Positions 33,265 to 37,786 are shown, counted from the first letter of the stretch. The stretch: DNA of 58,713 bases from Reclinomonas americana ATCC 50394 (GCA_048213135.1 PS015330.1:5568-64280); one strand, 5' to 3'. The notes: generated by a model from the sequence alone, not told the origin. Program-made: numbers and translations.

Positions 33265-36200
33265 ATGTCGGTGTGTTCCTTCTCTCTTCCCTCCTCCTTT
33301 GTGTGTGTGCTCACCGTCCTTGCTTTCCGCAGTTCTCTGTGAATGTGAATGCGGCGCATGATTCATCGCTGTCGGTGGTGGTGGAGGGCATGTCGGGCAT
33401 GTCCACTCTCGCGGGCTTGCTGCACGAGGCCACGCGCTTGCTGCGTGAGACGAGTGGAGATGGGGAGATGGAGATTGTGGGGGTGGAGAAGCCGGTGCCA
33501 TACGACTTGGAAGATGTGAGAGAGCTGAAGCTCAAATCACTCGGCATCAGCTCATCAACACACCTCGTCGTCCGTGTGACGCTCGGCGTGGAACTGCAGT
33601 CGAGTGGAGGGAGTGGGAGTGGAAGGTGTGTGTGTCTGTGGTTATTCCTCTGTGCAAATAATGCATCTCACTGTCATTATCGTCGCGCAGCAACTCGGAG
33701 CGAGTTACTCGGTTTGTTTTGTATGCCTCTCCCATCCTCATCTGCCCCCTGCTTGTTCTTCATTGTTGCACCTTGCTGATGTGGAGCGTGTGCACGCACA
33801 GCATGATCAACTCCCAGCGCATCAACATGGCCTTCGAGGTGGTGGAGGAGGCCGTGCGATTGCGCTGCCAACGTGCGCTGGCGCAGTTCAGTCGCGATCA
33901 TCCCGGCTTTGACGTGCGGGCGTGGACTCCAGATGTGTGGACCCCTCGCATGCCCTCTGCAAATATTGGAAGATGGCGCGACCAGCATGCCCCACTCCAC
34001 CCTGGTCGGGTCAAGTTGTTTGCGCAGCAGCAGCAGCACCTGCTCGATTGGAAGTCTGCCGTTGATTCCGAGCGCGCCTCCGATCCCACATGTGACGCCT
34101 TTGACGTAACAATCTTGGCGTCAATCTTGTTGTTTGGTGGCTTCATTCTTGATGATGGTCGAAGGCAGCTGCTGATTGACAATGCTGATGAACGGAAGGC
34201 TGTTGAGGAGCTGCGTGAGATGCGGAACGAATTGGCGCATTGTTCATCAACATGGACCTCATCCACCATGCAACAATTCCTCGGTGACGGCAGTGTCTTT
34301 CTCTCCATCCTCGCTCGACTGCAGTTGACGACTGATGAGCGTGCTCGATTCTCTTCTCGCGTCAGTGAGGCACGTCATGTTCAGCACATTATCAGCACAT
34401 TCGAGGAGCGACTGCATCAACTGACCGTGCGTGAGCTCTTCTTCTACCAGCACGACGAGAGTGTGCGCAAGGACATGCAGATGTATGTGCCACTGCTGTG
34501 CTCACGTGATCGCGATGTCTCGTCGCGAGACAAGATGACGAATCTGTTGACGGAAGTGGATGTCTTCCTCTCCGACTCCAACGCCACGCAGCGTGTGTTG
34601 GTGCTGTTTGGCAACAGCGGGGCCGGCAAGACCACCACCATGTCGGTGCTGGCTGAGCGAGCCTGGCGACAGTGGCAGACGAGAGAGAGCAGACGAGTGC
34701 CAGTGCGTGTGCCTCTTGGTTCTCTGCGCAATGCCGATGAGCGACTGTTGGAGGAGGCACTGGAACGACTGTCTCCCGAGTTGGGATTGGAGTCGGATGT
34801 GCGACGGTTGAAGGAGGAACCACTTCTGCTGTTGCTTGACGGGTACGATGAGTTGTATCGTGGTGTGAATCTGTTTGTCAAGAACCAGCTTGATGTGTGT
34901 CGCGATGTTAAGGTGATTATCACCTGTCGAAGCGATTATGCACTGACGGCACTGGGCGGTGTGGCGGGGTATCGACGGTACTTTGCACCGGTGGATGCAC
35001 GCGGACAGTTGTGCATGCAGCAGCTGATGGAGCGACACATTGCGCCGTTCAACAAGAAGCAAATTGAGGAGTACTTTGAGCGACTGTTGCAAGTGGGTGG
35101 TGAGAATGAAGACGGTGAAATGCGGTGGTCAACTGCCGAGGAGTACATTCGTGCACTGGAGAGTGTGCATGGTTTGGATGCGCTGGTGTCGAATCCATTC
35201 CTGCTCTCTGTGGTGGCTCGAGTGTTATCGCAGTTGGTTGCGAGTGGTGTGCAGCGACCGACTCGGTGTGATGTGTTTGACCGATTCATTCGACAGTGGA
35301 CCGAACGAGAGCGCCTAAGACAAGCTCGTCTTGGCGCGGAGCGTGTGCCGAGTGAGGAGACATGTCTTGCTTTCTGTGAGGGACTGGCACGATTGATGCA
35401 TGAGAGGAATGTGGTGCGAGTGCCTGTGATGGAGAGTCAATCAAGTGAAGATGACTTTGGTGGTGCGCCACTCGCCGTGCGACGGGTGAAAGAGGGACCG
35501 TTTGACAAGTTCCTCGGTCACAAGAACCAGCATGTGCGAGTGTGCTGCCCGATTGTGCGACGGTATGGGACGACGCAGTGGGGTTTCGTGCATCTGTCGT
35601 TGCTGGAGCACTTTGTGGCGCGGCATGTGTTTGCGTGGGAGACGTGGGATGAGGAGAGGAGATTGACGATAGAAGATGTGCAGCAGCATGTGTTGGCGGT
35701 TCGACTGCTGAACGACAGACCATCGTTGGTGGGGCAGATGGCCGAGGTGGTGCGACGGTCTCCTGTGTTGCAAGCGAGACTGTGGGACGTGATTGAGCTG
35801 TCACGGGAGGTGGATGAGGAACGAGTGGTGACGGCAGCAGCAAATGCAGCGACGATTTTGTGTGTGGCACAAGTGTCGTTCAGTGGGCGAGATCTGTCGG
35901 GTGTGCGAGTGAGGGGTGCAGATTTGAGAGATGCGGTGATGCACAGGACGGTGTTGAGGGGAGCGGATTTGCGAGGGGTGAATGTGTGCATGGCGTATGC
36001 GAGGCAGGCGGATTTTCGAGAGGCAGATGTGACAGGGGTGAAGTGGCCGAGGAAGCCAATGGTGGGTCATTTTGGTGCAGTTACATCTGTTGCCGTCACC
36101 CCAGATTCCCAGCAAATTGTTAGCGGTAGTATGGATCAGACTGTGCGAGTGTGGTCGTTGGCAAGTGGCAAGAAAGTACGCCGACTGGAGGGTCACACGA

Positions 36201-37786
36201 GTGGAGTGCATGCAGTGGCAGTGTCACCCGATGGCCAGCACATTGTGAGTGGCAGTGGAGACAAGACTGTGCGGGTGTGGTCGGTGGCAAGTGGCGAGGA
36301 GGTGCGCCGACTGGAAGGCCATGCGGGTGCGGTGTGTGCGGTTGCAGTGACACCCGATGGCCAGCACATTGTGAGTGGCAGTGGAGACAATACTGTACGG
36401 GTGTGGTCGGTGGCAAGTGGCGAGGAGGTGCTCCGACTGGGTGGCCACAGGAATGCGGTGTGTGCGGTTGCAGTGACCCCCGATAGTAAGCGCATTGTGA
36501 GTGGCAGTAGGGACGCGACCGTACGGGTGTGGTCGGTGTCAAGTGGCGAGGAGGTGTGCCGACTAATAAGAGGTCACCTTGACATGCTGTATGCGGTGGC
36601 AGTGACACCCGATGGCCAGCACATTGTGAGTAGCGGTGGGGACAGGACTGTACGGGTGTGGTCGATGGCAACTGGCGAGGAGGTGCGCCGACTGCAGAGT
36701 CATGCGCGAGTGTTGCTTGCGGTTGCAGTGGCACCCGATGGCCAGCACATTGTAAGCGGCAGTGATGACAATACTGTACGAGTGTGGTCGCTGGCTAGTG
36801 GCGAGGAGGTGCGCCGACTGGAAGGCCACACGGATTGGGTGCGTGCAGTGGCAGTGACACCCGATGGTCAGCACATTGTGAGTGGCAGTGCAGACAAGAC
36901 TGTACGGGTGTGGTCGGTGGCAAGTGGCGAGGATGTGCGCCGACTGGAAGGCCACACGAGTAGGGTGACTGAAGTGGCTGTGACACTCGACGGTCAGCAC
37001 ATTGTGAGTGGCAGTGTGGACAAGACTGTTCGTGTGTGGTCGGTGGCAAGTGGCGAGGAGATGCGCCGACTGGAAGGCCACACGAGTTTGGTGAATGCAG
37101 TGGCAGTGACACCCGATGGTCAGCACGTTGTGAGTGGCAGTGATGACAAGACTGTACGGGTGTGGTCGTTGGCAAGTGGCGAGGAGGTGCGCCGACTGGA
37201 AGGCCACGCGAGCTGGGTGTGTGCAGTGGCAATGACACCCGATGGCCAGCACATTGTGAGTGGCAGTGGAGACAAGACTGCACGGATGTGGTCTATGGCA
37301 AGTGGCGAAGAGGTGCACCGACTAGAAGGCCACGCGAGTGTGGTGCGTGCATTGGCGGTGACACCCGATGGGCAGCACATTGTGAGTGGCAGTGATGACA
37401 AAACTGTACGGGTGTGGTCACTGACGAGTGGCGAGGAGGTGCGCCGACTGGAAGGCCACACGGATCGGGTGTGTGCAGTGGCAGTGACTCCCGATGGACA
37501 GCACATTGTGAGTGGCAGCTGGGACAAGACTGTACGTGTGTGGTCGGTGGCAAGTGGCCAGGAGATGCGGCAGAGTACACAAGTTTATCTTGACAAATTG
37601 TTGCCGTTCACGTCTGCGAGCTCTGGCGTCACCGTGCGAACTGAAGGACACGCCATTCATGTCTATCGGCTGTATGATCGATGTATACAACTGGAGCGAA
37701 TTATTGGCCCCTGTCGCCGAGACTTCACTGATGTGATCATGCAGGATGCAAATCATGCAACGCAGAAAAACTGCTGTCTGTCGTAA
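33265..37786 (+). CDS. STAND/NLR-like protein: ubiquitin-like N-terminus, HEPN, NACHT NTPase, pentapeptide repeats, 12 WD40 repeats
   Basis: Exons 33265-33270, 33333-33625, 33691-33711 and 33802-37786 join in frame through GT-AG introns. HEPN-like FDVTILASILL..ELREMRNELAH (RxxxxH at 34223-34240). Walker A GNSGAGKTT at about 34610. Walker B LLLLLDGYDE at about 34825. VIITCR, NPFLL and GFVHLSLLEHFVA are NACHT-associated motifs. Pentapeptide block at about 35875-36045. WD40 array from 36065. Confidence 0.9.
36065..37575 (+). repeat. Coding tandem array of 12 WD40 repeats, 126 bp each (one is 129 bp)
   Basis: Consensus GHxxxVxAVAVTPDGQHIVSGSxDxTVRVWSVASGEEVRRLE. Similarity is obvious at DNA level, e.g. 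CAGCACATTGTGAGTGGCAGT recurs. Confidence 0.97.

Follow-up and report, generated by a model that had tools for sequence, protein, structure and literature searches.

A stretch of 58,713 nucleotides from Reclinomonas americana ATCC 50394 (GCA_048213135.1, PS015330.1:5568-64280; hereafter the window) carries, at positions 33265-37786 of its + strand, a predicted gene whose product is interpreted, with a probability of about one half, as a single-chain sensor-effector resembling NOD-like receptors (NLRs) and belonging to the signal transduction ATPases with numerous domains (STAND), with a head that would most likely be a HEPN RNase, strongly diverged and activated by induced proximity. A module of pentapeptide and WD40 repeats would bind a foreign or non-self protein, and binding of this ligand would release the NACHT module for nucleotide exchange and oligomerisation, bringing the N-terminal domains together. 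The head, most likely of the Swt1/Abi2-like group of HEPN RNases, would become active through this induced proximity and cut RNA, leading to a stop of growth or to cell death. Residues are numbered throughout from the ATG at 33803, which opens a frame of 1,327 codons that ends with a TAA stop at 37784-37786; all features are on the + strand unless stated otherwise.

The switch of the protein is a NACHT NTPase (34592-35086, aa 264-428), matched by Pfam PF05729 at 38.9 bits (curated cut-off 26.7) over profile positions 1-163 of 167. STAND NTPases are marked by a Walker A motif GxxxxGK[ST] and by a Walker B motif in which hhhhD precedes a tiny residue and D-E. Both motifs, which the original prediction had described as intact, could be located and are indeed intact, as GNSGAGKT (aa 270-277, 34610-34633) and LLLLDGYDE (aa 342-350, 34826-34852). 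The NACHT domain is followed by a post-NACHT region (35087-35857, aa 429-685) for which no Pfam family was found and which is common to the NACHT-pentapeptide-WD40 relatives described below. Next is a block of pentapeptide repeats (35858-36052, aa 686-750), matched by PF00805 at 35.2 bits (cut-off 20.2) in two stretches, the best being aa 691-725, and by NCBIfam pentapeptide models over aa 686-756 at scores below those models' own cut-offs. Twelve WD40 repeats (36059-37573), each of 42 residues with one spacing of 43, account for 12 stretches of match to PF00400 with a total of 447 bits. The prediction of a STAND protein with pentapeptide repeats and 12 WD40 repeats is thus borne out, since NACHT, pentapeptide and WD40 families all score above their Pfam curated cut-offs.

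The WD40 repeats are 72% identical as protein (range 57-86%) and 80% identical as DNA (range 62-92%), and Tandem Repeats Finder reports 36138-37569 as 11.3 copies of a 126-nucleotide period with 83% matches and no indels. Variation within the repeat unit is concentrated at a few positions: columns 7, 9 and 25 have the highest entropy (2.5-2.7 bits), columns 6, 5 and 27 come next, and columns 8 (V or L) and 26 (D) are conserved. Among 396 pairwise codon comparisons at the six variable columns, 321 are nonsynonymous and 19 synonymous, and at the other 36 columns there are 451 of each kind in 2,376; these figures compare the repeats of one protein and do not amount to a formal test of selection. 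In Podospora NWD and HET-E repeats, codons 7, 9, 25 and 27 are positively selected and flank the conserved codons 8 and 26 (Paoletti 2007, PMC1805685), an arrangement that is matched here. The six most variable positions of the repeats in the window include all four of these codons, and the flanking pattern, in pairs around columns 8 and 26, is independent of where the repeat unit is taken to start. Such variation is characteristic of a diversifying binding surface and adds to the recurrence of HET-E-like repeat diversification outside the fungi.

The NACHT-repeat body (aa 230-770) has 25 relatives at E <= 0.001, aligned at 94-98% query coverage. The best of these belong to the Mortierellomycota (E 3.9e-46, 30% identity, 98% coverage), and further relatives are a Glomeribacter protein and EukProt proteins with names beginning in 'tig'; for nearly all of the 25, the precomputed Pfam lists include the pentapeptide family. 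The spread of the NACHT-pentapeptide-WD40 chassis is patchy: it occurs in fungi and in an endosymbiont of fungi, in one EukProt proteome that is alga-like, and in R. americana. When the N-termini of five of the relatives were scanned, an Entomortierella protein was found to begin with ARM_5 (E 6.5e-67) and a 'tig' protein with TIR_2 (E 8e-18), a third gave a weak match to ISP_coupler, and two matched nothing. Exchange of the head on a conserved NACHT-repeat body, with TIR among the alternatives, is what characterises NLR-type proteins. Because the WD40 variation and the occurrence of other heads on the same chassis point in the same direction, immune or non-self sensing is supported. A quick tree of the NACHT chassis (21 rows) includes 20 of the 25 relatives, the other five having no phmmer match over 250 residues; in it the R. 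americana protein stands alone on a long branch at an unresolved fork and falls within neither of the two starred clades. In the same tree the Glomeribacter protein adjoins the fungal clade, with a support of 80 in the SH-like approximate likelihood ratio test (SH-aLRT). Glomeribacter is a bacterial endosymbiont of fungi of the Mortierellomycota type, and its placement hints at gene transfer between host and symbiont.

The resemblance to HET-E and HET-D of Podospora anserina raises the question of whether such a sensor would be directed at viruses and bacteria or at conspecifics, distinguishing self from non-self after cell fusion by the same mechanism of sensor, NACHT switch and death effector. 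The Podospora proteins, which act in allorecognition, and their NWD relatives likewise combine NACHT with WD40 repeats of high internal conservation and an N-terminal death-effector head, and the inclusion of their four positively selected codons among the most variable positions here would be expected of an allorecognition protein. Nevertheless, such a role is judged distinctly unlikely: the Podospora proteins have a HET head, whereas no HET domain is among the Pfam matches of the R. americana protein at E <= 1, and general immunity would account just as well for NACHT relatives that carry TIR heads. The observations as such suit either use. The Podospora proteins also differ in having no pentapeptide block.

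The head bears a HEPN-like helical domain (33992-34447, approximately aa 64-215), which holds the two motifs named in the original prediction, D-x-T-x-L as DVTIL (aa 101-105, 34103-34117) and R-N-E-L-A-H (aa 141-146, 34223-34240), both present where they were said to be. HEPN domains are four-helix bundles. As described in PMC3710099, their helix 3 ends in an Rx4-6H motif whose arginine is followed by a polar residue (N, D or H, often N), and helix 2, upstream, supplies an acidic residue. R141-N-E-L-A-H146 has the spacing and the polar residue of this motif. A single-sequence AlphaFold 2 model of aa 1-255 is all-helical, with a mean predicted local distance difference test score (pLDDT) of 41.5 and no residue at 70 or above, too poor for a fold search; at this low confidence it puts RNELAH near the end of a helix spanning residues 128-148, and D98 and D101 within a helix spanning residues 98-117. 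So far as such a model can indicate, the head sequence fits the published description: N follows R, the motif closes a helix and an acidic residue lies upstream. The acidic helix could complete an active site with R141-N-x-x-x-H146 at the end of its own helix. The RxxxxH pattern by itself is weak evidence for HEPN, being found 12 times in the protein, eight times as RRLEGH or RRLQSH inside WD40 repeats.

Profile searches lead to the same superfamily. HEPN_Swt1 is the sole Pfam family matching the head domain at E <= 10, with E 0.0012 (19.6 bits) when aa 60-215 are searched, 0.0022 with aa 1-255 and 0.0087 with aa 1-770; these scores range from 16.8 to 19.6 bits against a cut-off of 27.5 bits, and the RNELAH stretch aligns with positions 73-102 of the 115 in the profile. 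The CARF2--CARF_HEPN profile of PADLOC matches aa 120-163 at E 0.011, and the top two clusters for the head in the ESM Atlas are HEPN_DZIP3 (0.79) and HEPN_Swt1 (0.78), both under the 0.9 mark. Taken together, the sequence makes it quite probable that the head domain is HEPN.

A further connection passes through bacterial plasmids. The best tblastn match of the head among plasmids (E 0.1) is an Aminobacter protein of 216 residues, encoded between ParB genes (L001:3674-4321) and carrying LRVLRNALAH. This protein belongs to a family of 290 proteins at E <= 0.001, here called A1, of which two listed clusters are named 'pEK499-p136 HEPN' by UniRef and 5 of 40 aligned members match Pfam pEK499_p136 at E <= 0.01. 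Comparison of the head with family A1 by hhalign gives a probability of 75.5% over aa 104-182, and the family A1 profile scores 13.5 bits on the real head against a maximum of 8.0 in 5,000 shuffles. The family has an invariant R..RNA core, and its H142 is nearly invariant. Its predicted fold (pLDDT 89.9) is a helical core with a beta-sheet insert; Foldseek found no match to this model in the PDB at E <= 0.001, nothing relevant was found among PDB sequences with the family profile, and HEPN and Las1 appear in structural comparison only in rows of low Z. Family A1 probably represents HEPN of the pEK499_p136 type, in a variant of the fold for which there is no solved structure.

Several observations weigh against a HEPN RNase head and the mechanism built upon it, in addition to the limit stated above on the comparison of repeats. 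No HEPN profile attains its curated cut-off, HEPN_DZIP3 (PF18738) gives no match at E <= 10 with either aa 1-255 or aa 60-215, and the model of the head's own fold reaches a pLDDT of just 41.5. No relatives of the head were found at E <= 0.01 in a word-index search of proteins of 729-2,323 residues, at E <= 0.001 in a phmmer search of 1.84 billion representative proteins, at E <= 10 among PDB sequences, in prokaryote genome contigs, or by tblastn elsewhere in the window. Family A1 was picked post hoc from a search result of E 0.1, its hhalign probability is only 75.5%, and the segment after the motif is a beta-strand in family A1 where it is predicted, at low confidence, to be helical here. 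Because all of the HEPN signals share the same approximately 55 residues around RNELAH they are not independent, and for this reason, and because the bacterial stepping-stone family was chosen after the fact, they do not multiply. The head domain, which was matched in none of the 25 relatives of aa 230-770, is a sequence orphan. Prediction of a complex of two copies of aa 60-215 gave a score of 0.00 with an uncertain fold, and is evidence in neither direction. The HEPN RNase originally proposed is partly supported, by four weak signals on one short stretch, all below curated cut-offs; the all-helical model is of too low a confidence to weigh for or against the fold.

These same observations could be accommodated by an NLR-like sensor of the same kind with a head that is not a nuclease, namely a lineage-specific helical adaptor, signalling or membrane-acting, like the helical heads of fungal NLRs, in which RNELAH arose by chance. 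The orphan status of the domain, the confinement of the sub-threshold HEPN scores to one short stretch, the low pLDDT of the head model, the occurrence of RxxxxH 12 times by composition alone, and the absence of a known family from the heads of two of the five scanned relatives would all be as expected. Such a head is nevertheless considered unlikely, as HEPN_Swt1 is the only Pfam family at E <= 10, the PADLOC library and the language-model search name the same superfamily at the same residues, and no helical head family of fungal NLRs is among the Pfam matches at E <= 1 or E <= 10.

It is improbable that the domain is HEPN-like but catalytically dead or limited to RNA binding, as proposed for the HEPN of Swt1, or that the protein is a regulatory STAND scaffold outside biological conflict. 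The Swt1 precedent has some force, because PMC3710099 considers the HEPN dyad of Swt1 probably inactive and the motif only partially conserved in the group; in the R. americana protein, however, the arginine, the polar N after it and the histidine are all present. As for a scaffold, it is in conflict genes and not in housekeeping scaffolds that one typically meets near-identical repeats, variation focused on a few positions and different heads on one chassis.

A head of the HEPN RNase type on a NACHT protein would have many counterparts. PMC3710099 lists, for animals, fusions of DZIP3-like HEPN to NACHT, CARD, DEATH and LRR, which have expanded in Nematostella, oyster and Capsaspora, as well as CXorf38-type (Swt1-like) HEPN-NACHT fusions and bacterial HEPN-STAND-TPR proteins. 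More than 50 NACHT proteins of the pearl oyster have an N-terminal DZIP3-like HEPN, and some NACHT proteins in general have C-terminal TPR or WD40 repeats, according to PMC9646362. In a preprint on bNACHT proteins (bioRxiv 10.1101/2022.07.19.500537), HEPN is among the effectors, and pentapeptide repeats and beta-propellers are among the sensors. The suggestion that the gene represents an undescribed defence system could not be upheld, since HEPN on NACHT with C-terminal repeats is already catalogued in both animals and bacteria (PMC3710099; PMC9646362; 10.1101/2022.07.19.500537). The kind of system is therefore a known one; what is new is the combination of an orphan HEPN-like head, a putative ubiquitin-like cap, a pentapeptide-WD40 sensor and a non-animal host.

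Among the closest known systems are the animal HEPN-NACHT proteins, both the DZIP3/hRUL138-like proteins of molluscs and cnidarians and the CXorf38-type, Swt1-like proteins of cephalochordates and cnidarians, which have, as here, an N-terminal Rx4H head with N after R on a NACHT domain, carry LRR, TPR or WD40 repeats at the C-terminus, and are predicted to be immune sensor-RNases with lineage-specific expansions (PMC3710099; PMC9646362). The R. americana protein differs from them in lacking a PF18738 match, in having a head with no detectable sequence relative, in having a pentapeptide block before the WD40 repeats and a probable ubiquitin-like exon before the head, and in having a NACHT domain closest to those of non-animal proteins. 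The Mortierellomycota, Glomeribacter and 'tig' proteins have the complete chassis of NACHT, post-NACHT region, pentapeptide block and WD40 repeats in common with it, but different heads (ARM_5, TIR_2 or none known). The bacterial HEPN-STAND, bNACHT and Avs proteins likewise combine an enzymatic head, a STAND NTPase and a repeat sensor in one chain, and HEPN RNases, pentapeptide repeats and beta-propellers are listed as parts of bacterial STAND-type proteins (10.1101/2022.07.19.500537; PMC3710099; PMC13581612). In contrast to these, the gene in the window is eukaryotic, with predicted introns, and scans of prokaryote genome contigs returned no relative of its NACHT core, just as they returned none of its head. 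RNase L is activated through ligand-induced dimerisation. Its switch, however, consists of ankyrin repeats and a pseudokinase that respond to 2-5A, where the R. americana protein has a NACHT NTPase, and its HEPN family is also a different one. What the two would have in common is a HEPN RNase, which in RNase L is antiviral, of the KEN type and, in the mutagenesis cited within PMC3710099, dependent on its conserved histidine.

A full-text literature search found no paper on a HEPN-NACHT-pentapeptide-WD40 protein in a protist, although supplementary tables may list closer architectures, and none reporting RNase activity, activation or a bench test of a HEPN-NACHT protein, eukaryotic or other. 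HEPN-NACHT proteins are therefore widely catalogued but, as far as the literature was found, by computation only. The gene in the window would lend itself well to testing, being compact, with intact motifs and an evident R/H pair in a single large exon. A more specific proposal, put forward tentatively, is that a lineage-specific new family of HEPN domains serves as the head of a non-animal, probably unicellular, eukaryotic NLR, in which NACHT oligomerisation, once a diversifying pentapeptide-WD40 surface has bound a pathogen or non-self protein, would bring about RNA cleavage in the style of abortive infection as a form of protist innate immunity, and the ubiquitin-like cap may gate or localise the RNase.

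The cap would be encoded by a putative second exon of 293 bases (33333-33625), which specifies 98 residues. The phase of this exon is compatible with that of the main exon (AG + C giving Ser, then Met-Ile-Asn from the ATG at 33803), and its codon-usage score, calculated with the usage of the main exon, is +21.5 in the proposed frame as opposed to -39 and -46 in the other frames. No Pfam family matches it at E <= 1 and nothing relevant was found among PDB sequences; in the ESM Atlas its best clusters (0.90) are unnamed, and clusters of ubiquitin and Rad60-SLD follow at 0.87-0.89. The exon is thus in keeping with splice signals, phase and codon usage, while the ubiquitin-like label given to it originally is to be taken as a lead rather than a finding. 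A small ubiquitin-like exon probably precedes the HEPN-like head.

The remainder of the predicted gene model consists of a putative first exon of six bases (33265-33270), ATG TCG, with a speculative start codon; a putative first intron (33271-33332), which begins with a GTGTGT donor directly after this exon, continues through a polypyrimidine tract and ends in CCGCAG; a putative second intron (33626-33801), running from GTGTGT to CACAG, for which the codon-usage score is negative in all three frames; and the main, third exon of 3,985 bases (33802-37786), which contains the whole 1,327-codon frame opened by the ATG at 33803, together with its TAA. The codon-usage score is positive over the first 255 codons of the third exon. 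It is also positive (+21.6 in frame over 37544-37783) at the other end, where a C-terminal tail of 70 residues (37574-37783) has no family among the best 25 of the 64 Pfam matches listed. Additional coding exons past the WD40 block were considered and rejected, as the frame continues for these 70 codons with a positive coding score. On splice signals, phase and codon usage, 33265-37786 appears reasonable as the extent of the gene; the six-base first exon would be the weakest part of the model, and an in-frame methionine within exon 2 offers an alternative start. It is highly improbable that the gene has recently decayed to a pseudogene, that it is a relic without expression, or that the upstream exons are misread and the protein starts at 33803. 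The gene model is a prediction from DNA sequence and its first exon is just six bases long, which leaves some room for such errors, but the open frame of 1,327 codons with all catalytic motifs intact argues against decay, and the positive codon-usage scores of exon 2, of the start of exon 3 and of the tail argue against both possibilities. The gene is an intact eukaryotic gene with putative introns.

The window is part of a draft eukaryotic scaffold, with 16 runs of N of 20-989 bases each, and is very rich in CT/GA microsatellites. It also has blocks in which GC and AT skew are strong and change sign from one block to the next; these features inflate mechanical lists of open reading frames (ORFs). 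No tRNA or Rfam matches were found in the window. A bacterial origin was considered and rejected, in view of the GT-AG introns and the absence of tRNA and Rfam matches. No paralog of the protein was found by tblastn elsewhere in the window, the only match being to itself. The idea of a defence island was also rejected, as ten other ORFs of the window proved upon scanning to encode MORN repeats, PH fragments or no family. Two ORF pieces at 21152-22627 have MORN repeats (E 0.00047 and 0.00014, just below the cut-off) and are probably exons of a single MORN-repeat gene. An ORF at 24639-25115, with a weak PH-domain match (E 0.0057) that includes WKRRWFTL, probably forms one exon of a signalling gene of an ordinary kind. 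On the - strand, an open frame of 110 codons with no Pfam family (38477-38806) reaches an N gap at 38808 and may be the end of a neighbouring gene on the opposite strand.

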